The notes under the pieces: model-generated
Database searches by the model: none
The model's input: the letters and a program-made list of their open reading frames with translations, nothing else
What the model was told of the DNA's origin: nothing
Sequence record: OK272470.1
DNA from: Escherichia phage JLBYU50
Length of the DNA: 64,000 bases
Reading direction: 5' to 3' (one strand)
Made by a program: the position numbers and the translations under genes
Shown here: positions 5,235-22,183 of the stretch, in pieces
Layout of the letters: every line of letters begins with the position of its first letter
Numbering within the stretch: the stretch's first letter is position 1

Positions 5235-7394
5235 ATGAAACAGGCTATTTTTACTGTAACTCGAAATACGAGAGTAAATGCCAGTTCATTCAGCTATAAG
5301 ACCGTCGATGGAACGGCGGTCGCTGGTAGAGATTATGTAGCTAAACAGGGAACAGTAACGTTCCCTTCTGATGCAGATTCTGCTACTGTAGTGGTTGATG
5401 TATATGAACGTCCGGCAAACTCTTTAGATCTTTATTTTACTCTTGAGATTACTAGCATAAGTCAAAATAACATGATGATCAACGAAGAAATTCGTTGTGT
5501 TATTACGACTGATCAATCGAATACAACCCCACTAACTTGGCCTGTTGTGAAGTCTAGAATGTTTGATCCTAAGTTTTGGACAATAGATTCTCAAGCAACA
5601 GAGAGCTGTTCTATTATCTCTAATGGTGATTCTTTCACAGCAAGAATGGTTAATAGGACAGTGGCTGGTCTTGCTGGGATTATTTGGTCAACTTACGATA
5701 AATATGATCACAAAGGATTAGGCTACCAAGAACATTCTGACTTAAGTAAAGAGAAACTTTGGTTTAAAATGGAACTTAGTCAAGGTGTTCCTGGATTAAA
5801 AGAAGAAAAATTATTGCCATCCTTAACAGTGACACTGAAGGATGAAACAGTTCATTATGTATCTCTAAACTTTTATGCAGAAGAAGTTTCAGAGGACGGT
5901 AAAACAGCAACAATAAAATTAGATTTCTCAAATTTAAAATCTGGGCCAGAAAATGATATTGTTGTTGACACTACACAGATAGATAATATGTTCTTCTCCT
6001 TGATCTCCACAAGGTATCAAGAAATTGAAGATGTTATACCTGTAGACAATATGGATCTTTCCTTTAAGTTTACCATACTAGAGCCTGATACTGGTTACAG
6101 TATGATGAATATGGGTAATTTAAATGTTCCGGCGCACACCATAAGAATGTGTACATCTTATGATGATATGTATAACCTAACCCCAGAGCGAGTTATTTCT
6201 AACACCTATAGATTAGGTTATAGAGATATGATTAACCATTATAATGGTATGTCACACTATTATCAATTTAGTTGGGATGCTGGATCTAATAAATGGGCTT
6301 TGAACAGAACAGAATATTTAAACCCAGCAACAGAAGCCTGGTTTGACAATTTCCACGCTAATGCAAAAGCTATGGGCTACACAGTAATGAACTCCTTAAG
6401 TTTTGAACTTATGAGTACAGTGTGTCCTGTAGAATGGGTACAACATGCTTGGAATGATGATCTTGCTGCTACAGGTTATGAGCCACCAAGTTATGTTTTA
6501 TCTCCTTCAATTGATGAAGGGATGAATTATTTACAAGGTGTAATAAATAAGATAGCTTCTATATCCGCTGCCAATGATCTTCCTGTTATTATTCAGGTTG
6601 GTGAACCGTGGTGGTGGTATAACACAGCTACCAATCTACCGTGTATTTATGATTATACAACCAAAGTTGCATTTAATAATGAAACTGGATTATATGCACA
6701 AGATGTTGGTACAGTTAAGAATTATAAAACTGGTACACCATATGATGAATATTATGCATTCCTATCTAAAACATTAGGACTACGTGTTGCTAAGTTTGCA
6801 ACGGATACTAGATTAGCATATCCTGGAGCGAAAGTTACATTGTTACCATTTGTGCCATCCATTTTGGGTAATGGTATGATGGAGTTTGTTAACTTCCCTA
6901 AAGATTATTATATCCCAGAAAACTTTGACTTTTATTGTTCAGAATGTTATGACTGGTTGTTGGAAGGCAAGATGGAAAGATCTTTCGACGCTATCACAAT
7001 ACCTAATGAGCAACTAGGTTTTAGTTACGATAAGATACATTATCTTGCAGGGTTTGTTCCAGATGCAACTCTAGCACCATTATATGGCTTTGATCCTGAA
7101 TCAAACTATAGAACATATTTGTGGAAAATGATTATAGGCAATATTGTATTGAATGACCAGAAGTTTGTTGGTTTATATCAATACATATGGGCTTACCCAC
7201 AAATAATGCATGATTCAATAACTGTTCTTAATTCAAAATCCCAAGTGTTTTATATGGGTAATGTGCCTTTGAATTGCTACTTGCAAGATATCACTCTTAA
7301 ACAGGTAAATGTTGAGATTGCCACTATAAGTGGAATTACATTAGCCACTAAATCTGGAGAAGATTTAGTAACAACACAAAAATTTTATATATAG
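5235..7394 (+). CDS. virion protein with N-terminal Calx-beta-like domain
   Basis: Motif TVDGTAVAGRDYVAKQGTVTFPSDADSATV resembles Calx-beta; 719 aa. Confidence 0.5.
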   Translation: MKQAIFTVTRNTRVNASSFSYKTVDGTAVAGRDYVAKQGTVTFPSDADSATVVVDVYERPANSLDLYFTLEITSISQNNMMINEEIRCVITTDQSNTTPLTWPVVKSRMFDPKFWTIDSQATESCSIISNGDSFTARMVNRTVAGLAGIIWSTYDKYDHKGLGYQEHSDLSKEKLWFKMELSQGVPGLKEEKLLPSLTVTLKDETVHYVSLNFYAEEVSEDGKTATIKLDFSNLKSGPENDIVVDTTQIDNMFFSLISTRYQEIEDVIPVDNMDLSFKFTILEPDTGYSMMNMGNLNVPAHTIRMCTSYDDMYNLTPERVISNTYRLGYRDMINHYNGMSHYYQFSWDAGSNKWALNRTEYLNPATEAWFDNFHANAKAMGYTVMNSLSFELMSTVCPVEWVQHAWNDDLAATGYEPPSYVLSPSIDEGMNYLQGVINKIASISAANDLPVIIQVGEPWWWYNTATNLPCIYDYTTKVAFNNETGLYAQDVGTVKNYKTGTPYDEYYAFLSKTLGLRVAKFATDTRLAYPGAKVTLLPFVPSILGNGMMEFVNFPKDYYIPENFDFYCSECYDWLLEGKMERSFDAITIPNEQLGFSYDKIHYLAGFVPDATLAPLYGFDPESNYRTYLWKMIIGNIVLNDQKFVGLYQYIWAYPQIMHDSITVLNSKSQVFYMGNVPLNCYLQDITLKQVNVEIATISGITLATKSGEDLVTTQKFYI

Positions 7395-7402
7395 GAGTAA
7401 AA

Positions 7403-9976
7403 ATGTCAACTACAATTACTAATTTACCCGAAACATCAAAAGTTAATGGTTCTGATTACCTGGTTTTAGACCAACCTGATAAGACTGTTAAAAGCACAGT
7501 TTCCAACTTTCTTGCTGACACTGGGGTGGTTTTAGCCACCCAGTTGAAAGATACAGATGGAGCAGATTTAATACAATCCTCAAATGGTAATACTGTTCAG
7601 GAAGAGTTGAATAACAATCTTCTTAATGATCGTGAACAGTGGCATCGTAGTCTTGCTGAGGCAGGGTTAACCCTTGTCAACGGTAGCTTTGAAGAAGGGG
7701 CTACAGTAAACAATAAGACGGATGCTGTTTGGCATATTGCTGGTGGGCAGTGCTATACGTGGGGTGGTGAATTTCCTAAAACAGTAGCTGCTGGTTCAAC
7801 TCCAGAAACATCTGGTGGCATTGGTCTTGGTGCATGGGTTAGTGTTGTGGATATGTCATTAAGGGATAATCTTTCAAACTCCAGTAATGATAATTACGGT
7901 GATGCGCTGGTAGCAGTTAAGCAGCCGTATACTACCGCAATAAGTAGAACGCAGCATGATAAAAATGCTGATGTACTTGATATTTCGGATTTTGGTGTAG
8001 ACATAACTGGTGCTTCTGATGAGGGTAGTAAGTTACAACAGATATTTAATGAGTTGGCCGCAGCAGGCAAGACTATTCGTATGCGCGGTTCTGTAAAGAC
8101 TACTATTAACCTAGATATAAGGTGTAACGTGCTGTTTGAGCAGGGTTTCAAACTAACTGGCGTGAAACTAGAAACTGGACCTCAGACTTACATTAATATT
8201 TTTAATCGTAATGTAGATGTAAGCCATATTATCCTAGATGGTATTGTTATGTGTTTCTACCCCGTAAGTTCCACTACTACTGTTAGAAACAAAAGATGTA
8301 TTACGTTTACATCCAACACGTTAGAAGATTCATGTGTTCAGGTGGGCGGTAATAACCTATCTGTACGTAACGTGTTAATTTCTAACAATACTTTTAAGAA
8401 CTCTGGGTCACGTATTCCAACAGCAATTCGCCTAACTAATGTCTCAAATATTGAGGTGAGTTTTAACCTTATCCATGAGTATGGTAGACCTATTTACCAA
8501 ACAGCAACCCGCTCTTTCTCCAACTACAATGTCAATATACACCACAATAATATGGTTTGTGAGTATGGTATAACTCTTGCGGGTACTACTGCTTTTAGGG
8601 TTAGTAAGTTCACAATTGCTGACAATGACATTGTTTGCGAGGTAAGAAATACAGCAACAGGTGGTCGGGATGGTATTGATGTAGTTTATGGTACTAGTGG
8701 TTTGATTACTAACAATAACATAAGGACAAACGGAAGAAGCCTTAGACTGTCTAATACTAAGGTAGATGTACTGTTTAACGATATGATATCCAGCGCAACC
8801 AGTGCATTCTCAGTATTAATGGCGAGTTGTTATGAGTCATCATTTGTTGGTAACACTGTTTTCAATAACTCAACTGCTGAAATTATTGTTGTACATGTGC
8901 AGGATGAAGCTGGTGGGCTTTACCGGAGTAATAACATTCGTGTGGAATCTAATACAATCAAGGGATTTGGTAGGCTGATTCGGGTATTAGATACAAAGGA
9001 TTATGTTGTCATCAATAACAGATTAATCAGAACATCAAACAATGGTAATGCAGTTATTATTGCGGATGGGACTAGTGACAGAGGCCAGGTGCATAGCAAT
9101 GTGGTAGTTGGTCCTGCTGGAGTGGTAGTATCTGATATAGGCGGAACCAACAATGCAACAACCCCTGCTGATACACTGCTGAGTGTTGCAGCTAACAGCA
9201 AGACCATAACAGCCGTGGCGAATGGATTAGTTGATCCAGACTTGAATAATTCGAAGGCATTCATCTTCAATGTTCAGGTGTCTGATGTTCAACTATTACG
9301 TGCGGTATCTTCTACAGGCTCAGGAAATGCTAAAACCGTATCTCAGTTCATGTCGGGTATAACTGGGGCAACTCTGGCATGGAATGGTACTGCCTTCCTA
9401 TCAGAGATGTCTGGACCACCAGATATATTTGTGAATGGTGTACTTCAAGATTCCTATGGTGCAGAAGACTATGTGTTCTACAGATCAGGGATGCTTATTG
9501 ATTCCCAGAATAAACTCAGTGTTAGAGACTTCCAGTGTATTGGGGATGGGGATACCATAAACGATGGGACTGGTAATATGACCCTTCGTAATATGGCAGC
9601 AGCACAATCGGCTGAGGGCGCTATTCACAGTGCTTTCTTCCGTGCTCCTCTTGTTATGAATGGCTCAGTGTATGACCCTACAGTAACAGGTATTGCATCT
9701 TCAGATTTGTTTAGCACAGCTCTAGATCCAAGAATGGCTATAGGACAAAAAGCTGATGGAACCTACGTTATTATTTGTGTTAATGGCAGAAACGCAGATG
9801 GGGTAAGTCCAGGCTGCACTATGCAGCAGCTAGCTTCTAAGTTTGTAGCCCTTGGTTGTATCAACGCAATGAATTTGGATGGCGGCGGTTCAGCTACTCT
9901 TTGGTATAACGGTGCTATCATTAATGACCCGGCGGATGGAAGTGAACGCCCTGTTTACCATTGTATGTATGTGTAA
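7403..9976 (+). CDS. tailspike: N-terminal anchor, right-handed beta-helix, C-terminal phosphodiester glycosidase (NAGPA)-like domain
   Basis: N-terminus MSTTITNLPETSKVNGSDYLVLDQ typical of tail fibre anchors; Asn/Gly/Thr-rich beta-helix repeats; C-terminal NAMNLDGGGSATLWYNG motif. Confidence 0.6.
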   Translation: MSTTITNLPETSKVNGSDYLVLDQPDKTVKSTVSNFLADTGVVLATQLKDTDGADLIQSSNGNTVQEELNNNLLNDREQWHRSLAEAGLTLVNGSFEEGATVNNKTDAVWHIAGGQCYTWGGEFPKTVAAGSTPETSGGIGLGAWVSVVDMSLRDNLSNSSNDNYGDALVAVKQPYTTAISRTQHDKNADVLDISDFGVDITGASDEGSKLQQIFNELAAAGKTIRMRGSVKTTINLDIRCNVLFEQGFKLTGVKLETGPQTYINIFNRNVDVSHIILDGIVMCFYPVSSTTTVRNKRCITFTSNTLEDSCVQVGGNNLSVRNVLISNNTFKNSGSRIPTAIRLTNVSNIEVSFNLIHEYGRPIYQTATRSFSNYNVNIHHNNMVCEYGITLAGTTAFRVSKFTIADNDIVCEVRNTATGGRDGIDVVYGTSGLITNNNIRTNGRSLRLSNTKVDVLFNDMISSATSAFSVLMASCYESSFVGNTVFNNSTAEIIVVHVQDEAGGLYRSNNIRVESNTIKGFGRLIRVLDTKDYVVINNRLIRTSNNGNAVIIADGTSDRGQVHSNVVVGPAGVVVSDIGGTNNATTPADTLLSVAANSKTITAVANGLVDPDLNNSKAFIFNVQVSDVQLLRAVSSTGSGNAKTVSQFMSGITGATLAWNGTAFLSEMSGPPDIFVNGVLQDSYGAEDYVFYRSGMLIDSQNKLSVRDFQCIGDGDTINDGTGNMTLRNMAAAQSAEGAIHSAFFRAPLVMNGSVYDPTVTGIASSDLFSTALDPRMAIGQKADGTYVIICVNGRNADGVSPGCTMQQLASKFVALGCINAMNLDGGGSATLWYNGAIINDPADGSERPVYHCMYV

Positions 9977-10016
9977 TTATCTGGTGGGACTATGCTAATG
10001 GCGTAGATTTCATAGC

Positions 10017-10048
10017 AAAAAAAAACCCCGCTTCGGCGGGGTAATCAT
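10017..10048. terminator. stem-loop ccccgc-ttcg-gcgggg flanked by A9 run
   Basis: Perfect GC hairpin after tailspike gene; T-tract would be on the opposite strand, so orientation is ambiguous. Confidence 0.45.
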
Positions 10049-10166
10049 TGAGAATAACAATAGGAGTACATATGGAATCTCAACTCAGTCAACCTAAGCA
10101 GGTTATCAACGTCAAAGTGAACAAGCAGAGTATCGCTCATGATTTAAAAAGTAATGAGAACGCACT

Positions 10167-10412
10167 ATGAGAAAATTTTTAATAGGTATGTTCTGTACAT
10201 ATCCTGATAATAAAGTCAGTTCTACTAAAGTTTGGAATGCTATTGGTATGATTGTTATGTCCAGTATGTTTATTTATTTGGGAATTGATAAAGAAATTCC
10301 TGAATGGATGGGCTGGGCTTTTGTTTTTATGATCACACCATCCAGACTAATGAAGAATTTAATAGATTTACGTTGGGGCAGATCACCTGCTCCTGATAAG
10401 GAGGATAACTAA
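10167..10412 (+). CDS. small membrane protein
   Basis: 81 aa with hydrophobic segments; stop overlaps start of baseplate J-like gene. Confidence 0.45.
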   Translation: MRKFLIGMFCTYPDNKVSSTKVWNAIGMIVMSSMFIYLGIDKEIPEWMGWAFVFMITPSRLMKNLIDLRWGRSPAPDKEDN

Positions 10413-13537: not shown

Positions 13538-14089
13538 ATGAAAAAAGATGTTATTTTTACAGGTTTTGAATTGTACGAACCGGAATTAACAGAGGAAAAC
13601 ATTCTTTATCTTTCTGTTGGCGGTGGTTTTTTGCAAGACAAGGATGGTAATGATTGGTATCAACTTCAAAAAACCTTGATGGCTGAATATCCCGACGCTT
13701 ATTTTATTACCTTAGATGATAATAATATTGTACGTGGTGCTACTAAAGATGTTACTACCTATTTCCCTGCCGGACAATCTATTTTAGTTACATATAATGC
13801 ACCAGATAAAATAGAAGATGAAAGTAATATTGGCTCTTGGCAATATGTTAAAGGTAAATTTGTTCCTCACAATAGTCTTGCTATTGAAGATGCTACTCTT
13901 AAGTTAGAAAAGGAGTTAACTTGGGCTACGAATCAAGTGTCTGCGATTCAAGATTTAGAGGAATTACAAGGTTTATCTGAAGAACAAAAAGATTGGTTAG
14001 GAAAAGTTAAACTCTATCGTGCAACATTAATTCAAATTAACGTTGAAGATGCACCTAATATAACTTGGCCTACAAGACCTAAGAAATAG
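13538..14089 (+). CDS. hypothetical protein (possible tail fibre assembly factor)
   Basis: RBS aaggagag; position downstream of fibre gene. Confidence 0.4.
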   Translation: MKKDVIFTGFELYEPELTEENILYLSVGGGFLQDKDGNDWYQLQKTLMAEYPDAYFITLDDNNIVRGATKDVTTYFPAGQSILVTYNAPDKIEDESNIGSWQYVKGKFVPHNSLAIEDATLKLEKELTWATNQVSAIQDLEELQGLSEEQKDWLGKVKLYRATLIQINVEDAPNITWPTRPKK

Positions 14090-14098
14090 GGGCAATGT

Positions 14099-14440
14099 AT
14101 GGAGCTAACAGAAGTATGGGATATCGCTAAAGAGGCGATTATCCCTCTTATTGGCGTAATCTGGGTGGTCTTCAAACAGAAGATAGATGATATGGCAAGT
14201 GATTTGGATAAAATGGAAGACAAATACCGCGAACTAGAAAAGAAGTTGGTGTTTGTTGAATCCACTTATGCTACCAAAGCGGAACTTGCTCAAATGCTTA
14301 ACCAGATCAACTCTACATTAATGGCAAATAACACTGCCTTAGAACAGAAGATTGAAAAAATAATGGATTTAAAAAATGCTCCTGTTCAATTAATGTTAGA
14401 GGAGATTACGAAGCGCACACAAAGTAAGGACAAAAATTAA
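14099..14440 (+). CDS. membrane-anchored coiled-coil protein
   Basis: N-terminal hydrophobic helix IIPLIGVIWVVF followed by charged coiled-coil. Confidence 0.45.
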   Translation: MELTEVWDIAKEAIIPLIGVIWVVFKQKIDDMASDLDKMEDKYRELEKKLVFVESTYATKAELAQMLNQINSTLMANNTALEQKIEKIMDLKNAPVQLMLEEITKRTQSKDKN

Positions 14441-16854
14441 TGGCGAATTTTCCAACATATCCTGCTACGACACTAGAACAAGGTGTTGATCTGGTTATAT
14501 TCTCGTCTAACCAGATGCATGATGTTATTAATGGGGATGCTACAGCAACTGTAGAAACCGAAACAGGTTTAATACCTACACTGCGTAAAGCACTTGTTGA
14601 TAACTTCTTCTTTAAGAGTCCTGTTGCTTGGTCAGCAGGATCAACTGAAACTGTATTTAACCAGTTACGTTATTTTGAAAACGGTATCTTGAGTGGGTAC
14701 TATTATGCCCCATCTGCCACTACTGCGAACCCTGTACCTATGCAGGGAACACCTGTAGGAGACAGTAACTGGACTCTGTACGCTCTTAAAACTGAACAGT
14801 TAGCTTCAGATGTGTATCCTTGGTATTTTAAAGGTGCTACAGGATATGAAACAGAAATCAGTCCTCCTTATATCTTTGATAATGCTATTGTCACCATTAA
14901 CGGTGTAATTCAGATTCAAGGTGAAGCATTTACTATCAAAGATAGTAAAATTATTCTGGCAGAACCATTAGGTTTAGATCCGTCTACTGGTCTACCTAAC
15001 AAATTGTTTGCTTTTATTGGTAAAACAACAGCCTCTACTTCTTACGTAGAGAAAAACCTTTTGTCATCCACCACTGGTGCAGCAATGGTTGGTCTTCCAT
15101 CTGGAGGCAACCTGTTACAAGCTCAATACTTTGTAACGCCTGAGCAGTTTGGTGCAATTGGTGATGGAGTTACCGATGATACTCAAGCAATTTTAAAAAC
15201 CATTACTTTCGCTAACACGAATAACATTCAAGTACGTGCAGATAAGAATTATAGATTCACAAGCTCAATTGCTATGTCTGGTATTCGTTGGTATGGTGGT
15301 ACATTCACTGGTAACGGTGGAACAATGATTTCTACTGTGTCCTGTTGGATGGAAAACGTTCGCTTTGAAAAATGTTATGTTAAGATGTTAGGTGGTGATT
15401 GCCGATTCTATCGTAATATCTTCTCCAATGCAACATCTACAGCAGCATTCTTAATGCAAGCAATGACAAGTGAAGGTACGTTGGACTTCAGTTACAACGA
15501 AATGTATGGTTGTAAATATGCGATCCTGCAACAAGGTACTGGAGAAGTAATGACCTACGGGCGTTACTCTAACAACTATATTCACGATATTAAAGGTGAT
15601 GCTATTGAACTTAACGTAGTTCAAAAACACTACACTGAAGGTTTGATTATCGAGAATAACCACATTGCTAACGTAGATGCTTCTGGACAAGGGGCAAACT
15701 GGGGTATTGGTATTGGTGTAGCAGGTAGTGGCCCATATGGTGTTGATGTTCCTGATTCACAATATGTACGTAATTTCAGTATCGTTGGGAATAGGGTTTA
15801 CAATTGCCGTCAATGTTTACACGTTGAAATGGGTAAAAACTTCACAATACGTGATAATGAAGTTTATCCTAACACAGCAGTTTCAACAGGTACAGGTTTA
15901 ACTACTTGTGGTGTTGCATTATACGGATGCCAAGATTTTGAAGTTGATGGTTTAACTGGTTATCTGCTTAATGATCCATCTGTTTCAACACGCATGGTCT
16001 TTATTGACTGGGGTGTTAACAGTGGAAGATATGCGGGGCCACCAATTAACTTTACAATTAAGAATTTGGATATTCCAGAATCTTCAATTGAGATTGCAAC
16101 ATCTGGATCAGATGACTGGGAAAACTCTACAATTGTTAGTAATATCAATTGTAATGTTTTTAAATGGCGTGGGCTACCATCTAGCTCTACCTTTAATAAT
16201 ATTCGTTGCCGTAGTATTGACTTTATTGGTCAACACGGAAGCGGAGAAGGAAGTGGTGGCGGTTTCTATACTCGCAGCCAATTCACGTATATGAAGTGGG
16301 TAGGATGTACAGCACTTAGCGGAGATGAAACAACAGTTTCTTTTGCTAAAATCTACACTGATCGTTGCGATCAGGTTGGAAATAACTTTGGTGTTCCAAC
16401 TGCTGTTGATGGTACAGGTCATCGTGGGCCAGTTTTAACTACTATTTCTGAACAATATTTTACAGCTTATGATGAATTCCCAGGTGGGCGTGAATTCCCT
16501 ACTGGAACAGTTATTCATTGTGCAAGCGGTAAAAAACATGTTGTTACAGTAGGTGGTGCTTTCTTTAGTGCCAACGAGAAAATAAAAGCAACTGTTACAG
16601 GTCAAACCTATCTACAGTCTAATGCTTTAAACTGGGCTAGTAATGGCTACGCTAAAGCAGCAGGTACTAAGATTGTTATTCCAGGTGCAGGTGCAAATGG
16701 CGGCGATCTTGTGACAACTATAGCACGTGCTACATATGTGACAAATAGTTTGTACACAATAGATATTGCAGATCCAATTGTAACACCTACAGCAGAGAAT
16801 ACACAAATTAAAGCTCTGAACCCTGTTACTTTTGTTACTGTCAATAATGCTTAA
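14440..16854 (+). CDS. tailspike with pectate-lyase-like right-handed beta-helix
   Basis: 804 aa; repeated N/G/T-rich beta-helix rungs; terminator downstream. Confidence 0.6.
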   Translation: MANFPTYPATTLEQGVDLVIFSSNQMHDVINGDATATVETETGLIPTLRKALVDNFFFKSPVAWSAGSTETVFNQLRYFENGILSGYYYAPSATTANPVPMQGTPVGDSNWTLYALKTEQLASDVYPWYFKGATGYETEISPPYIFDNAIVTINGVIQIQGEAFTIKDSKIILAEPLGLDPSTGLPNKLFAFIGKTTASTSYVEKNLLSSTTGAAMVGLPSGGNLLQAQYFVTPEQFGAIGDGVTDDTQAILKTITFANTNNIQVRADKNYRFTSSIAMSGIRWYGGTFTGNGGTMISTVSCWMENVRFEKCYVKMLGGDCRFYRNIFSNATSTAAFLMQAMTSEGTLDFSYNEMYGCKYAILQQGTGEVMTYGRYSNNYIHDIKGDAIELNVVQKHYTEGLIIENNHIANVDASGQGANWGIGIGVAGSGPYGVDVPDSQYVRNFSIVGNRVYNCRQCLHVEMGKNFTIRDNEVYPNTAVSTGTGLTTCGVALYGCQDFEVDGLTGYLLNDPSVSTRMVFIDWGVNSGRYAGPPINFTIKNLDIPESSIEIATSGSDDWENSTIVSNINCNVFKWRGLPSSSTFNNIRCRSIDFIGQHGSGEGSGGGFYTRSQFTYMKWVGCTALSGDETTVSFAKIYTDRCDQVGNNFGVPTAVDGTGHRGPVLTTISEQYFTAYDEFPGGREFPTGTVIHCASGKKHVVTVGGAFFSANEKIKATVTGQTYLQSNALNWASNGYAKAAGTKIVIPGAGANGGDLVTTIARATYVTNSLYTIDIADPIVTPTAENTQIKALNPVTFVTVNNA

Positions 16855-16856
16855 TT

Positions 16857-16880
16857 AAAAAGGGGCGAAAGCCCCTTTAT
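16857..16880 (+). terminator. rho-independent terminator
   Basis: aggggc-gaaa-gcccct hairpin followed by TTTAT. Confidence 0.65.
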
Positions 16881-16895
16881 AAAAGGAGTAGTAAA

Positions 16896-18857
16896 GTGAT
16901 TTTAACACGTCCAAATAGTGCCATTGCAGACATGGTAGAGTCTCGCTATAGAAAGCGTAGAAGTTTTGCAAGTGGTTTTACCTTAAGAGATGCTCGTGAA
17001 GCATTGCTCTTTGAAGCTGACGGTAACTACTATCAGTGGAAAGGTTCTCTACCTAAAGTTGTACCTGCTAACTCTACTCCTACATCTACTGGAGGGATTT
17101 CAGATACAGCTTGGAAAAATGTGGGTAATGCAGATGACATTGCTCAAATAGAATCAGAATTAGATGCTATTGAAGCTGAAATTGAAGATCTTAGAGAATC
17201 CATTCCAGAAGCTGGTAAATCAGCTTACCAGATTGCCGTAGACAATGGTTTCCAAGGTACTGAGACAGACTGGTTGGCTTCTTTAAAAGGTGATCCAGGT
17301 GCTCCATTAAAGCTGCTAGGGACGCTATCTAATACCAACCAATTACCTACAACTGGAAACAATGCAGGAGATGCATGGATTGTAGGCGAGAATATGTATG
17401 CTTGGGATGGTACTGCTTGGAGAAAAGTAAACTCACAGGGGCCAGAAGGTAAATCAGCTTATCAAGTTTGGCTTGCAGCAGGAAACCAAGGTACAGAACT
17501 AGATTATCTTGCTTCAATTAAAGGTGATAAAGGGGAACCTGGCCCAGAGGGGCCACAAGGTGTGCCAGGTAACAATGCTAATGGTTTTGATTACCAAGGT
17601 GCAGCTAATTCCGTTTCAGATCTTCCTTCTGCATCTCCTGGAAACACATCTCAAGCATGGAGTATTGGTACATATCTATACGTGTCAAACGGTGTAGAAT
17701 GGATCAATATGGGCGCTATAGTGGGGCCAAAAGGAGATAAAGGCGACAAAGGAGATAAGGGTAACACTGGTGATTCTGCTTATCAAGTCTGGTTAAATGC
17801 TGGTAACGTTGGTACTATTGACGAATATATTGCCTCTCTGAAAGGAGAAAAAGGTGATAAGGGAGACAAGGGTGATCAAGGTGAGCAGGGTATACAAGGC
17901 TTGACGGGGCCAACTGGTGCAGGGTTGACAATTATTGATATTCTGACTGACACTTCTGAACTACCACAAACTGGAGAAGATGGTGATGGTTATCTGATCA
18001 ATAATGAACTTTGGGTTTGGTTGCAAGGAGCCACACAGTGGACAAATGTTGGTCGTTTAGCTGGTACTCCAATCACTGCAAAAGGACACGTTGCGTCTGC
18101 AAGTGCACTTCCTCCTACAGCCAATTACGGTGATGCTTATCTGACGGAAGATACAGGTCATCTTTACATTTACACCTATGATGAACAAACTCAAACTGCT
18201 GAATATGTAGATATGGGTAGTTTGAAAGGTGATAAGGGTGAAAAAGGTGACGCTGGTACTAACGGTACAGACGGTGCAACTTGGATTGTTAAAACAACAG
18301 ATCCAATCTCTAGTGATGGTAAACAAGGTGATTATGCCTTTAATATCTCCACTGGCGAGGTGTTCTTAAAAACATCTGCAACTGCCTGGACTTCTCAAGG
18401 TACACTGCCTAGCATCACAGATGCACCTAGTGACGGTAAAATTTATGCTCGTAAAGATGGAGCATGGGAAGAACTCACTAGTTCTGTAGATGGTCAAGAT
18501 ATAGTTCCAACAAAAGTAACAGCTAATTTTATAGAGGTTACAGCATACACCAACAACTCTGTTACAGGTGACTGGACACCTCCAGGAACACATAACATGA
18601 ATGTGTTGAATCTTACTGGTAACGCTACTATAAAAGCATGGCCTGGTGTCGAAGATAGCACAAAACCTAAACCATTCTCTGCAATAGTTTATCTTATCCA
18701 AGATGCCACTGGGGGTCATACTGTTACTTTAGATCCATCTTACAAAGTAATTGGTTCTAGTGATATTAATACAGATCCTAACGGAGTAACAATACTACAA
18801 CTAACATATTGTGGTATTGGCGATTACGTGGATGCTATTGTTGCTAAACGCACATAA
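16896..18857 (+). CDS. collagen-like repeat tail fibre (GTG start)
   Basis: Gly-X-Y tracts GDKGEPGPEGPQGVPG and GPKGDKGDKGDKGNTG; RBS aaggag 7 nt before GTG. Confidence 0.65.
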   Translation: MILTRPNSAIADMVESRYRKRRSFASGFTLRDAREALLFEADGNYYQWKGSLPKVVPANSTPTSTGGISDTAWKNVGNADDIAQIESELDAIEAEIEDLRESIPEAGKSAYQIAVDNGFQGTETDWLASLKGDPGAPLKLLGTLSNTNQLPTTGNNAGDAWIVGENMYAWDGTAWRKVNSQGPEGKSAYQVWLAAGNQGTELDYLASIKGDKGEPGPEGPQGVPGNNANGFDYQGAANSVSDLPSASPGNTSQAWSIGTYLYVSNGVEWINMGAIVGPKGDKGDKGDKGNTGDSAYQVWLNAGNVGTIDEYIASLKGEKGDKGDKGDQGEQGIQGLTGPTGAGLTIIDILTDTSELPQTGEDGDGYLINNELWVWLQGATQWTNVGRLAGTPITAKGHVASASALPPTANYGDAYLTEDTGHLYIYTYDEQTQTAEYVDMGSLKGDKGEKGDAGTNGTDGATWIVKTTDPISSDGKQGDYAFNISTGEVFLKTSATAWTSQGTLPSITDAPSDGKIYARKDGAWEELTSSVDGQDIVPTKVTANFIEVTAYTNNSVTGDWTPPGTHNMNVLNLTGNATIKAWPGVEDSTKPKPFSAIVYLIQDATGGHTVTLDPSYKVIGSSDINTDPNGVTILQLTYCGIGDYVDAIVAKRT

Positions 18858-18858
18858 T

Positions 18859-18885
18859 CAAAGCCCCTTCGGGGGCTTATTGTTT
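18859..18885 (+). terminator. rho-independent terminator
   Basis: aagcccc-ttcg-ggggctt hairpin then ATTGTTT. Confidence 0.65.
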
Positions 18886-18896
18886 AAGGAGATTAA

Positions 18897-21716
18897 ATGT
18901 ATCCTATTCCTTTATTTATGTCAACAACATCAGCTTCAGTAGTAACAGCTACATCTATAACCACTTCCTCTATTGGTATTGCAATAGTTGGTAGTAAAAA
19001 GCAACTGACATACACAGTTTCACCGGAAGATGGTGCGTTATTTGATATAGCTTTTTCATCTTCAGATAATACCAAAATGGTTATAGATAATAGTGGTATG
19101 ATGGAGTTTGTTGCCGAAGGTGGTTTTGATGCAATAATGACAGCTAAAAATAATTTAGGTGCTGTCTTAACTGATCAATCTGGTGGTTATGCTTCAGAAT
19201 TAAGCGTGTACACTGAAAGTCTATCAGCTATGGATGTAGGCACTACTCAACAGTTGGTTGCTACAATCAGTCCAGAAGGTGCTAAAGATCTTCCAGACAT
19301 GGTAATTACGTACACCACAACAGATCCAGAAGTAGCTACTGTAAGCCCTACAGGATTAATAACTGCTCTTAAAGATGGTAATTGCCGTATAGGTTGTACT
19401 GCAACTTATCAAGGAACAGTGGTGGCCTCTGATAGTTCTTATTTAGGTGTTAATGCTATTCCTGTTATTTCTAATGTAACAGCCGTGGCAAACAGCTATG
19501 GAGACGTTCGTGTTGCTTGGGATGTAGCTGATCCGCTAGATGGTGATACTTATACTGTAGAAGTATTAGATTTAAGTAATAATAGTGTTCAGTGGACTAC
19601 AACAACCACGAATACTTACGCTTACTTTGATATCTCTGACTCTATTCCTCTTTATGGGTTTGCTCCAACATACCTTAAAATTAGCGTTAAGAGCACCAAA
19701 GCAGCAGCCGTTATCTTTAATAACTCAATAGCTACAGATGATTCGTTCATTAAAGAAGTTATTGTTTTTGCTGGACAAGATAACGTAAATGCACACTTTA
19801 CAGAACTATCTGGTGCAAATAAAGCAGCAATGAGTAGCACAACAGCCCGTAATGCATATGCTACGCAACGTGGTTTAGCAAATGCTGAAGTTCTTCCGTT
19901 AAATACAGCTTCTGGATCATCAGCAGCAGATAAATATGCTGACGATAAAGCTGGAACAGGTACACCAGACAACTACTGGTATGATCTGGATAACACAGCA
20001 GATGGGCCATGCTTAACTAACTTTATCACTAAAGTCACACCTTATGCAAGTAAGGTTAAAGCCATTATTTGGGGACAAGGTGAAAATGATGCTGTATCAT
20101 CATCTTCAACTGTTGCAGGTAGATACAGTAACACTACACGTTACCATGATGCTACGATAGCTATCTTTGATAAGATGCGTACAATAGTTCCTGCTTCTCA
20201 AGCAAAAATTGTTTGGCAGATCCTGGGACGTTCTTATTTATATGGTGTAGAAGTTAATGGTGTGGATTGGCAGAAGTACAGAAATGTACAAAGAACCATC
20301 TCTACAGCACGTGATGATGTTATCATTGGTTCTTGGGTAGATGGTGCTGAACGTTACAGTGGTTATGTTTATGAAGAAGGTATTGATGGTCGTATCCATT
20401 ATATTTCTTCTGTATACCAAACAGCAGCTACAAAACTTGCTAAATCAGCAGCAGACGGTACAGACCTAACATCAACGTCACCTGTTTGGGTTGATATGGC
20501 TGTTCCAACTGGAGCAACAGCTACTTCCCAATCTAATCAAGATACAATTTTAGTATGGGATGCTCAAGGCTATAGTAAACACTACTTCCGTAATATTAAC
20601 GTCTTAACAGCATCTGTATTAACTGAACAAACGCTTAATACGAACAGCTATACGTTTACCTATGCAGATCAAGTAGAACAATATGGTTTTGCAGCAGGAA
20701 CTACTATATTTGATGTTGCATATTATGATGAAGCAAATGATGTGTTATCTCCTTTAGTACGTTTTAATGTTAACGTTACAGCAGGAACCGTAGAAGATAA
20801 ACCTGTAGTGATGGATTATGATTTAACACAAGAAACTCTTCCATCAGATGTTAAGGTTAATGGTGGGAACTCTTTTGCTCGTGCTTCTGGAGATACACTT
20901 GTAGCCACTAACACCTTGGTTGCTCCGTTGGAGTATGTTGGCACTACCCCTGTAGGTAGACGTGTAACAGCTAACACAGCTACACAAATTTTTGTCAACA
21001 ACGCCTTAACAAGCGCAAGCCCGTGGGTAAAGACCAACTTAACTGTTTCAACTTCATCTGATAAATCTCCGGCTGGAACTACTGCCAATGTATTCAAATT
21101 AACTCCGACTACAACATCTGGTAGTCATATCTTAACTGCAACATATACTAACGCGTACAACATATATGCCGGACGTAACTGGTCTGCCTCTGTTTTCTTG
21201 AAAGCGAACGGGATTACTAAGGCCAAACTAAGATTAAAAGCAGGAACTGAAGTTAATGAGGGTACTTTTGATTTAGCAGCAGGTACATTTACAGGAAGTG
21301 AAGCTAATATTATATCTATGGGTAACGGTTGGTATCGTGCTATTCTGCATAAAACAGGGATAGCCAAACAGTCCTCCATAAGTTTTGAAATAATTGCCTT
21401 GGATGCAACTGGTGCGGAGATTTTCGCTGGGGATGGTACTAGTAACCTTGCAGTTTGGTTGCCACAGCTTGAAGGTGCTCCTACAGGAGAAACATCAAAA
21501 GCTGGAGCGCCTTATGTCTGCACATATCCTGGAAGTTTAGGAGGAGTATCCTTCACTATACCAAGGAACGGACATACTGGTGTGGATGTTTACTATTCCA
21601 ACGGGGACGTTGTTCGTGACGTATTCTCTGGTACGGCATCTACTTGGACAATAAACTACTCCAGCTTGTACGATTGGGGATCAGTCTTTATTACAGGTTT
21701 GAAATATTACGACTAA
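18897..21716 (+). CDS. tailspike with Ig-like domain and SGNH/SASA-type carbohydrate esterase-like domain
   Basis: Ig-like segment (ATVSPTGLITALKDGNCRIGCTATYQG); FAGQDN and WGQGEND motifs resembling sialate-O-acetylesterase GQSN / WxQGESD. Confidence 0.55.
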   Translation: MYPIPLFMSTTSASVVTATSITTSSIGIAIVGSKKQLTYTVSPEDGALFDIAFSSSDNTKMVIDNSGMMEFVAEGGFDAIMTAKNNLGAVLTDQSGGYASELSVYTESLSAMDVGTTQQLVATISPEGAKDLPDMVITYTTTDPEVATVSPTGLITALKDGNCRIGCTATYQGTVVASDSSYLGVNAIPVISNVTAVANSYGDVRVAWDVADPLDGDTYTVEVLDLSNNSVQWTTTTTNTYAYFDISDSIPLYGFAPTYLKISVKSTKAAAVIFNNSIATDDSFIKEVIVFAGQDNVNAHFTELSGANKAAMSSTTARNAYATQRGLANAEVLPLNTASGSSAADKYADDKAGTGTPDNYWYDLDNTADGPCLTNFITKVTPYASKVKAIIWGQGENDAVSSSSTVAGRYSNTTRYHDATIAIFDKMRTIVPASQAKIVWQILGRSYLYGVEVNGVDWQKYRNVQRTISTARDDVIIGSWVDGAERYSGYVYEEGIDGRIHYISSVYQTAATKLAKSAADGTDLTSTSPVWVDMAVPTGATATSQSNQDTILVWDAQGYSKHYFRNINVLTASVLTEQTLNTNSYTFTYADQVEQYGFAAGTTIFDVAYYDEANDVLSPLVRFNVNVTAGTVEDKPVVMDYDLTQETLPSDVKVNGGNSFARASGDTLVATNTLVAPLEYVGTTPVGRRVTANTATQIFVNNALTSASPWVKTNLTVSTSSDKSPAGTTANVFKLTPTTTSGSHILTATYTNAYNIYAGRNWSASVFLKANGITKAKLRLKAGTEVNEGTFDLAAGTFTGSEANIISMGNGWYRAILHKTGIAKQSSISFEIIALDATGAEIFAGDGTSNLAVWLPQLEGAPTGETSKAGAPYVCTYPGSLGGVSFTIPRNGHTGVDVYYSNGDVVRDVFSGTASTWTINYSSLYDWGSVFITGLKYYD

Positions 21717-21748
21717 TAAAAAAGGAGCCTAATGGCTCCTTTTCTTTT
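21715..21748. terminator. bidirectional terminator between convergent structural (+) and replication (-) blocks
   Basis: ggagcc-taat-ggctcc hairpin flanked by A6 upstream and TTTTCTTTT downstream. Confidence 0.7.
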
Positions 21749-21751
21749 ATC

Positions 21752-22183
21752 TTAATCAGTGAAAATTACGCTTACATCTTCTTTAGAAAAGAGTTTATGA
21801 TCTTCACCTTTTGTCTCAAGAGTTTCATACAGGTTAAGAAGTTCTGAAACATCTTTCTCTACCAGTTTCTTCAATGTTGCAATTTTCTGTTTGCGATTCT
21901 TAATACGTTCAGCTACAACCTTACGTTGGTATCCAGCAGTACGATAACCTGAGAAAGTTACACCAGTGAGACTTGCAGTTACAGGATCGTAATGACGTTC
22001 AATCTGAAATTTATTAAAAGGTACAGCGTCATCACGAATAATCTTCCCGCCATTACTTACTTGACGAAGACCAGTAACTTGTTCTAGTCGTGCCATAGAA
22101 ATCTTTGGAGACAGACCAGAGTCTAGGTTCATACCATTGTTAATCAGTGCTTTCAGGGTGATTTTGCTGTTCAGTGTACTCAT
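21752..22183 (-). CDS. hypothetical protein
   Basis: RBS ggagga before ATG at 22183; 5' end overlaps 3' end of methyltransferase gene by 44 nt. Confidence 0.5.
   Translation of the reverse strand: MSTLNSKITLKALINNGMNLDSGLSPKISMARLEQVTGLRQVSNGGKIIRDDAVPFNKFQIERHYDPVTASLTGVTFSGYRTAGYQRKVVAERIKNRKQKIATLKKLVEKDVSELLNLYETLETKGEDHKLFSKEDVSVIFTD

Follow-up and report, generated by a model that had tools for sequence, protein, structure and literature searches.

We analysed 64,000 nucleotides (nt) of DNA from Escherichia phage JLBYU50 (sequence record OK272470.1; the window is this whole stretch) and describe here a complete gene at positions 16896..18857, the ortholog of gene 151 of phage phi92, whose product (gp151) combines short collagen tracts with repeated small modules. 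The gene and all of its features described below lie on the + strand. According to the open reading frame (ORF) list, it begins with a GTG start codon and encodes 653 amino acids (aa), with the stop codon included in the interval. A Shine-Dalgarno sequence (AAGGAG, 16883..16888), read from the sequence, lies 7 nt 5' of the start, and the phi92 record has an AGGAG ribosome-binding site annotated at the equivalent position. We estimate a probability of roughly 80% that gp151 is a lateral fibre of homotrimeric, beads-on-a-rod build that belongs to the multivalent, phi92-type apparatus by which this Justusliebigvirus myophage adsorbs.

Identity of the gene and its annotation

A megablast search found the gene in 56 phage records, 55 of which carry it at 95-99% nt identity over essentially the whole gene. 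Gene 151 of phi92 (YP_009012483 / CBY99580, 'tail fiber protein') is 97.8% identical over 1962/1962 nt and about 97% identical at the aa level; the two proteins have the same 653-aa length, module order and flanking genes, and differ by point substitutions only. Orthologs from Phapecoctavirus are about 60% identical, with the module order unchanged. At the profile level, residues 1-653 matched positions 1-656/656 of PHROG 15437 'tail fiber protein' (E=0, 1347.7 bits). The locus lies inside the baseplate/tail-fibre gene block, with the colanidase tailspike gp150 (PHROG 'colanic acid degradation') upstream and the Big_2 tail protein gp152 downstream, and the order gp150-gp151-gp152 is common to phi92, PHB05, alia and phAPEC8. 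A preliminary description, made from the sequence alone, had called the product a collagen-like tail fibre, and this assignment is supported by the phi92 orthology, the full-length PHROG match, a Pfam Collagen match above threshold, a Tail_spike_N domain and the position in the baseplate/fibre block. Records from the BASEL collection already name the product "lateral tail fiber protein with type I collagen domain". The gene is thus the already catalogued gp151, and the feature is an ordinary one for a phage tail-fibre gene.

In GenBank, genes 98-99% identical to this one are also named tail spike protein, tail assembly protein or hypothetical protein. The name 'tail assembly protein' probably stems from a PHROG match that covers only collagen sequence. 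We set aside the partial matches to PHROG families named 'tail assembly protein' and 'tail sheath', which lay in stretches of collagen or of A modules. Five records labelled 'Campylobacter phage' (MG065639, MG065645, MG065656, MG065689 and MG065650; host C. jejuni) carry the gene at 97.7% identity or in its Phapecoctavirus version. Because their genome sizes are phi92-like, these records are probably coliphage contaminants or have mislabelled hosts.

Collagen tracts and repeated modules of the putative shaft

We found four uninterrupted Gly-X-Y tracts in gp151: tract 1 (17523..17576, aa 210-227), tract 2 (17724..17777, aa 277-294, GPKGDKGDKGDKGNTGDS), tract 3 (17844..17924, aa 317-343) and tract 4 (18228..18281, aa 445-462), with 6, 6, 9 and 6 triplets, respectively. 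The two Gly-X-Y strings quoted in the preliminary description were both located: GDKGDKGDKGNTG spans aa 280-292 (nt 17733-17771), and GEKGDKGDKGDQGEQGIQG spans aa 317-335 (nt 17844-17900). The Pfam Collagen family (PF01391) matched three stretches with 32.5 bits, above its gathering score of 27.2, and the best stretch was aa 317-341 of tract 3. The tracts are rich in Lys, Asp and Glu and contain 2-4 KG[DE] motifs each, flanking residues counted, and few prolines. Short arrays with a 9-nt period underlie them at the DNA level: a 9-nt tandem array at 17730-17755 in tract 2, a 9/18-nt array at 17844-17881 in tract 3, which is annotated as a repeat_region in phage alia, and a 9-nt array at 18225-18250 in tract 4. 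Neighbouring GDK triplets differ in their synonymous codons. NCBIfam models of the streptococcal Scl and Legionella Lcl adhesins scored 27-52 bits against cut-offs of 325-500, and these matches were rejected because they reflect Gly-X-Y composition only.

The tracts alternate with two kinds of module. The module beginning with SAYQ, here called A, had been described as repeated at least three times, and we found three copies, at aa 109, 187 and 294. The literal pattern given for it had 0 matches, as it lacks a residue between [DN] and GT; relaxed by one position, it matched 3/3 copies. Its length was also misjudged, since the A module spans about 28 aa rather than about 40. Module A1 occupies 17211..17294 (aa 106-133, AGKSAYQIAVDNGFQGTETDWLASLKGD), A2 17445..17528 (aa 184-211) and A3 17766..17849 (aa 291-318). 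In AlphaFold2 (AF2) models, each copy is a helix-loop-helix, with helices at 110-116 and 123-131 in A1, 188-194 and 201-208 in A2, and 295-301 and 308-315 in A3. The second module, B, was absent from the preliminary description; it is about 45 aa long, has the consensus LPxxGxxGDAYxV..LYVW.G..W...G and occurs in five copies. These are B1 (17304..17438, aa 137-181, 67.6 bits with a hidden Markov model (HMM) of the module), B2 (17583..17720, aa 230-275, 72.3 bits), B3 (17922..18059, aa 343-388, 65.4 bits), B4 (18069..18227, aa 392-444, 72.1 bits), which has an enlarged hairpin insertion, and B5 (18279..18410, aa 462-505, 65.7 bits), which is divergent, lacks the LP motif and is absent from homologue P0014. 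Start-to-start spacings of the A copies are 78 and 107 aa, because the true super-repeat consists of an A module, an optional collagen tract and then a B module.

Self-comparison of the protein, which the preliminary description had named as the way to check the repeats, showed that they are significant: the best 20-aa self-diagonal scored 73 with BLOSUM62 against 33 +/- 4 (maximum 57) in 200 shuffles, and 174 self-windows scored at least 45 against a shuffled mean of 0.01. The repeats are visible at the DNA level as well, though diverged, with A copies 56-64% identical and a longest exact direct repeat of 14 nt in the whole gene.

The AF2 monomer predicts helix hairpins for the A modules and four-strand units for the B modules, the latter with a predicted local distance difference test (pLDDT) score of about 82-86; strands are predicted in B1 (139-144, 159-163, 166-170 and 175-178) and likewise in B2, B3 and B4. 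Low confidence (pLDDT <50) was confined to the Gly-X-Y tracts, as expected because a single chain was modelled without its partners. The full-length monomer has a predicted template modelling (pTM) score of 0.26, and only local secondary structure was taken from it. Profile searches of the PDB with the module B and module A alignments gave nothing significant, the best matches being 8y6v gp184 (E=0.22) and HincII (E=0.37). The 37-position profile of DUF2934 (Pfam PF11154) did not match gp151 at E<=1. It matched the ortholog P0002 at module A3 with E=0.022, and its threshold was passed by the homologues P0024, P0029 and P0105, which have 11-20 A copies (35-41 bits vs 22, hits summed). These profile scores hint that the SAYQ helix-hairpin module is related to this family of 'unknown function'.

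A tailspike-type N-terminal domain, a foldon-like motif and a C-terminal domain

The N-terminus of gp151 is a docking domain of the Tail_spike_N family (Pfam PF18668; 16926..17126, aa 11-77, profile positions 3-69/70); the match scored 75.6 bits, the family cut-off being 25 (E=3.3e-21). A phmmer search of the PDB matched this domain to tailspike N-termini with E values from 4e-14 to 5e-7, and Foldseek recovered G7C gp63.1 (4qnl) and CBA120 TSP1/TSP3 (6nw9, 4oj5). Its relatives by sequence and by fold are the N-termini of G7C gp63.1 and of CBA120 TSP1, TSP3 and TSP4. The docking domain is also 43% identical to aa 95-148 of a neighbouring tailspike (7403-9976). It is followed by a single 21-residue helix in the AF2 model (17139..17201, aa 82-102, IAQIESELDAIEAEIEDLRES), which is probably a short coiled coil, presumed to be trimeric; the annotation note of phi92 gp151 mentions a 'coiled-coil fold'.

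Directly after module B5 lies a foldon-like beta-hairpin motif (18411..18482, aa 506-529, SITDAPSDGKIYARKDGAWEELTS), with an AF2 hairpin at 517-520/523-526. The motif DAPSDGKIYARKDGAWEEL resembles the foldon of T4 fibritin (wac), EAPRDGQAYVRKDGEWVLL. It scored below the cut-off of Pfam Fibritin_C (PF07921) (19.4 bits vs 21, E=1.2e-3, profile positions 69-92/93), a family that matched homologue P0029 with 36.9 bits, and PDB entry 8rk3 matched gp151 aa 492-532 (E=2.8e-4). The protein ends in a beta-sandwich domain (18537..18854, aa 548-653), the presumed distal tip, which was modelled confidently and has likeness to fibre and spike accessory domains. This tip domain is 53-66% identical between genera, a level of conservation equal to that of the rest of the protein. 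Neither a beta-helix nor an enzyme domain was found in gp151 by Pfam, PHROGs or fold search.

Variation among relatives

At least 1203 homologous proteins were found at E<=1e-10; for modules A and B, profile comparison turned up no relative in the PDB. Among the 55 near-identical records, the gene is 1962 nt long in 46 and 1971 nt long in 8, and in 1 it is split at the record ends. Alignment with the 1971-nt gene of PHB05 placed the additional 9 nt in tract 4, where they add a Gly-Glu-Lys triplet and bring the tract to 7 triplets. Modules were counted by HMM over 120 homologues, among which the orthogroup comprises proteins of Justusliebigvirus and Phapecoctavirus, at 58-98% identity. Within the orthogroup, tract 1 always has 6 triplets, its length being constant in all orthologs examined, whereas tract 2 has 5-11, tract 3 8-10 and tract 4 about 3-13; in three Phapecoctavirus isolates, 9-nt indels give tract 4 lengths of 10, 11 or 13 triplets. 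Every indel among relatives has a length divisible by 9 nt and leaves the Gly register intact. Copy number, which the preliminary description had suggested comparing among related phages, behaves differently for the modules: there are always three A and four or five B modules in the orthogroup, and wide variation is seen only in distant homologues, with 0-20 A and 0-15 B modules. Citrobacter phage Tr1, which also has three A modules, and several metagenomic relatives are collinear with gp151 to about aa 460 and have unrelated distal parts after tract 4.

The earlier suggestion that repeated units could allow length variation by recombination is therefore supported only in part and in a weaker sense, as the variation in length takes the form of triplet slippage and distal-domain swaps and not of 28-aa modules gained or lost. 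As A copies are 56-64% identical and share exact matches of at most 14 nt, they should be a poor substrate for homologous recombination. We conclude from these comparisons that the modules are ancient, diverged duplications and that present length variation consists of single-triplet changes, and specificity would change by swapping the part distal to tract 4. Both triplet length changes and distal swaps have already been described for phage collagen-like fibre proteins (PMC3368898; PMC7242381).

One record stands apart. Phage EP57 (vB_EcoM_EP57, OR544956; L006 301-1839) has a gp151 ortholog shortened to 512 aa by the in-frame loss of 486 nt, which takes out half of A3 together with tract 3, B3, B4 and tract 4; neither a repeat nor microhomology was found at the deletion junction. 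In the same record, the colanidase and tail-protein genes are much shorter than those of phAPEC8, and the record measures 130.7 kb vs ~150 kb. Either several deletions have struck the fibre locus of EP57 or the record was misassembled, and we rejected it as proof of repeat-mediated deletion given the lack of a junction repeat, the short record and the shortened neighbouring fibre genes.

Alternative explanations

The observed variation could also mean that the repeats are an active length-variation device, in which frequent recombination between modules or collagen stretches adds or removes units. Such a device would fit the 9-nt-period arrays beneath the tracts, the one-triplet difference that sets PHB05 and seven other records apart, the spread of tract 4 in the three Phapecoctavirus isolates and of tracts 2 and 4 in the orthogroup, and the range of A and B copies in distant homologues. 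It also has precedent: collagen-like repeats of Streptococcus thermophilus phages and of virophages are proposed recombination and deletion hot spots, which is the idea put forward in the preliminary description; in-frame loss of such repeats has been seen experimentally and tied to host-range change (PMC7242381, citing Desiere, Lucchini and Brussow), and a host-range shift went along with the loss of 81 nt from the collagen-like gene of a virophage (PMC7242381). However, close relatives of gp151 show single-triplet changes only. A is fixed at three in every ortholog of two genera and in Tr1, the gene has exactly 1962 nt in 46/55 near-identical records, the module copies are diverged at the DNA level (56-64% identity, exact matches <=14 nt), adjacent GDK triplets use different synonymous codons, and the EP57 deletion has no repeat or microhomology at its junction and may be an artefact of assembly. 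We therefore regard an active device as unlikely.

It is somewhat less probable still that gp151 decorates the head or neck, in the manner of the T4 fibritin whiskers or the Pa223 capsid spike. The foldon-like motif and a weak similarity to the Pa223 spike would agree with this placement, but the Pa223 protein, gp52 (PDB 9ny6), is held at the three-fold axes of the capsid by an N-terminal arm of 40 residues, has no collagen tracts and is 11% identical to gp151. The Tail_spike_N domain (E=3e-21) points instead to the tail, since every relative of it with a solved structure is a receptor-binding protein carried on the tail, and the adjacent tailspike has this domain too; the gene is part of the baseplate/tail-fibre block, where a tailspike and a tail protein flank it; and the AF2 model contains one 21-residue helix rather than the long segmented coiled coil of fibritin. 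A role as a non-structural assembly factor, which would aid the folding or attachment of other fibres rather than bind a receptor, seems very improbable to us. The records of KMB37, ZYD, AV123 and ALITA do say 'tail assembly protein', and aa 260-330, in the collagen region, partially match PHROG 19976 'tail assembly protein' (E=3e-36). That match is nevertheless confined to low-complexity collagen, whereas the family matched at full length is 'tail fiber protein', and the succession of docking domain, shaft, putative trimerisation motif and distal beta-sandwich is that of a fibre, unlike the small gp148-type chaperone encoded nearby.

Proposed architecture of the gp151 fibre

We thus favour a homotrimeric lateral fibre with the following architecture. 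The Tail_spike_N domain would dock the trimer on a baseplate-associated fibre scaffold, and since the neighbouring variable tailspike bears a paralogous Tail_spike_N domain, both proteins probably plug into similar sockets. The short helix behind the anchor would form a coiled coil. In the shaft, small globular nodes would alternate with four short collagen triple helices; the nodes would be three A modules, each a helix-loop-helix contributing to three hairpins per trimer, and five four-stranded B modules. The collagen amounts to 27 triplets in total, which would span about 23 nm at 0.286 nm per residue. As the tracts are rich in Lys, Asp and Glu, carry KG[DE] motifs and have few prolines, their triple helices are presumably stabilised by salt bridges and not by hydroxyproline. 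Just past the last shaft module, the foldon-like hairpin would set the register of the three chains, and the C-terminal beta-sandwich would be the distal tip that touches the cell surface. In this scheme the trimer, the triple helices, the structure of the nodes, the docking partner and the receptor-binding role are inferences, whereas the ORF, its repeats, its orthology, its domain matches and the way it varies among relatives are shown directly.

Old duplications of the A-(collagen)-B unit would have given rise to a thin, jointed and probably flexible fibre. Its length would have been tuned over evolution as tracts 2 and 4 gained or lost single triplets (9 nt), and its specificity would be altered by replacement of everything past tract 4. 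The tip is conserved (53-66% identity between genera) while the neighbouring tailspike slot is hypervariable, which argues for a conserved receptor.

In a 2026 cryo-electron microscopy (cryo-EM) study of phi92, gp151 was independently named as one of four putative fibre proteins, with a function called uncharacterised; a gp151 model could not be fitted to fibre II, and gp151 was not placed in the density (PMC13450770). Collagen-like fibre parts are often unresolved in maps of other phages. Tentatively, and with more doubt than confidence, we suggest that gp151 could be either fibre II of the phi92-type baseplate or an extra thin fibre too flexible for cryo-EM averages, that it might share a Tail_spike_N socket with the variable tailspike, that triplets in tracts 2 and 4 might tune its reach in 0.86-nm steps, and that the A and B nodes might be two widespread trimeric building blocks without a solved structure.

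Comparison with known fibres and tailspikes

A close parallel to this architecture is found in the EPclA/EPclB side-tail-fibre proteins of E. coli O157 prophages, in which, as in gp151, short collagen domains are flanked by non-collagen modules, those of the EPcl proteins being trimerisation modules and those of gp151 putative ones (PMC3368898). Recombinant collagen-like fibre proteins from E. coli prophages form trimers with true collagen triple helices and have a C-terminal trimerisation domain (PMC3368898), and the Col domains of the EPcl proteins vary in length by multiples of three residues (Ghosh et al. 2012, PMC3368898). The analogy with EPclA lends support to triple helices in gp151. 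The flanking domains differ: those of the EPcl proteins are PfN (PF08400), Pf2 (PF03406) and PfC (PF06820), none of which was found in gp151 by a Pfam scan at E<=1, whereas gp151 has Tail_spike_N, the A and B modules and the foldon-like motif.

At its N-terminus, gp151 instead resembles CBA120 TSP1/TSP3 and G7C gp63.1, whose N-terminal domains are homologous to its own (PF18668; PDB 4qnl, 6nw9, 4oj5). In CBA120 and G7C, this N-terminal region reportedly joins one receptor-binding protein to another (Plattner et al. 2019; Prokhorov et al. 2017). Past this domain the proteins diverge, as those of CBA120 and G7C continue as enzymatic beta-helix tailspikes and gp151 continues as a shaft of collagen and modules with a small beta-sandwich tip. 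gp151 thus shares the anchor of the tailspikes and not the body of the spike. T4 fibritin differs in another way, having a C-terminal foldon on a long coiled-coil shaft, while in gp151 the motif is internal (aa 506-529 of 653) and the shaft is made of collagen and small domains.

Flanking signals and neighbouring genes

Two hairpins flank the gene. A G+C-rich hairpin read from the sequence (GGGGC-GAAA-GCCCC followed by TTTAT, 16862..16880) lies 3' of the stop codon of gp150 and 5' of the start of gp151 and fails the T-run rule of the terminator scan, and a terminator-like hairpin found by the scan (AAGCCCC-TTCG-GGGGCTT, 18861..18878) lies directly 3' of the gp151 stop codon. Terminators are annotated at the site equivalent to the upstream hairpin in phage ASO2A, and a terminator is annotated where the downstream hairpin sits in both phAPEC8 and ASO2A; at both flanking sites, the terminators annotated in relatives are rho-independent. 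Because relatives have terminators annotated on both sides of the gene, gp151 may be a separately attenuated transcription unit inside the late operon. Rfam gave no match on either strand of 14000-22000, and promoter-like sites were as numerous as expected from shuffled sequence. Antisense ORFs of 62-117 aa lie inside the gp151 gene in the ORF list; every indel among relatives keeps the + frame.

Several neighbouring genes deserve mention. The tailspike gene at 7403-9976 (+) encodes 857 aa, with a Tail_spike_N domain at aa 92-149 and, at the C-terminus, a NAGPA phosphodiester-glycosidase domain. In phi92 the endosialidase gp143 takes the place of this gene, and 7554-10172 has no phi92 match; a full-length match was found only in PHB05 (87%), and other relatives share only the first ~445 nt. 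This slot is the hypervariable receptor-binding slot of the phi92-like phage group. After gp151, 18897-21716 (+) is an intact 939-aa ORF that carries the Big_2 domain twice and has a stretch with weak likeness to SASA esterases. Its phi92 counterpart is broken by frame changes into gp152 and gp153, and phi92 lacks the last ~310 codons of the ORF (~20753-21703 absent). Further upstream, 5235-7394 (+) encodes a 719-aa gp142 ortholog in which a Calx-beta domain precedes two domains, N-terminal and TIM-barrel, of the 'non-contractile tail sheath protein' families (PF23844, PF23845), a combination that is unexpected in the fibre locus of a contractile-tailed phage.

Implications

As a discovery, the gene itself is of little value, being present in 55 deposited records at 95-99% identity and already annotated as a collagen-domain tail fibre. 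Its remaining value is practical: phi92-like phages, with their broad host range, are therapy candidates, and gp151 belongs to the small set of putative fibres without an assigned virion position and receptor (PMC13450770). The domain map, which comprises a docking domain, three A and five B nodes, four collagen rods, a foldon-like motif and a distal beta-sandwich, marks points at which the protein can be cut or swapped for engineering, or for the expression of fragments toward structures, with tract 4 as a natural junction.

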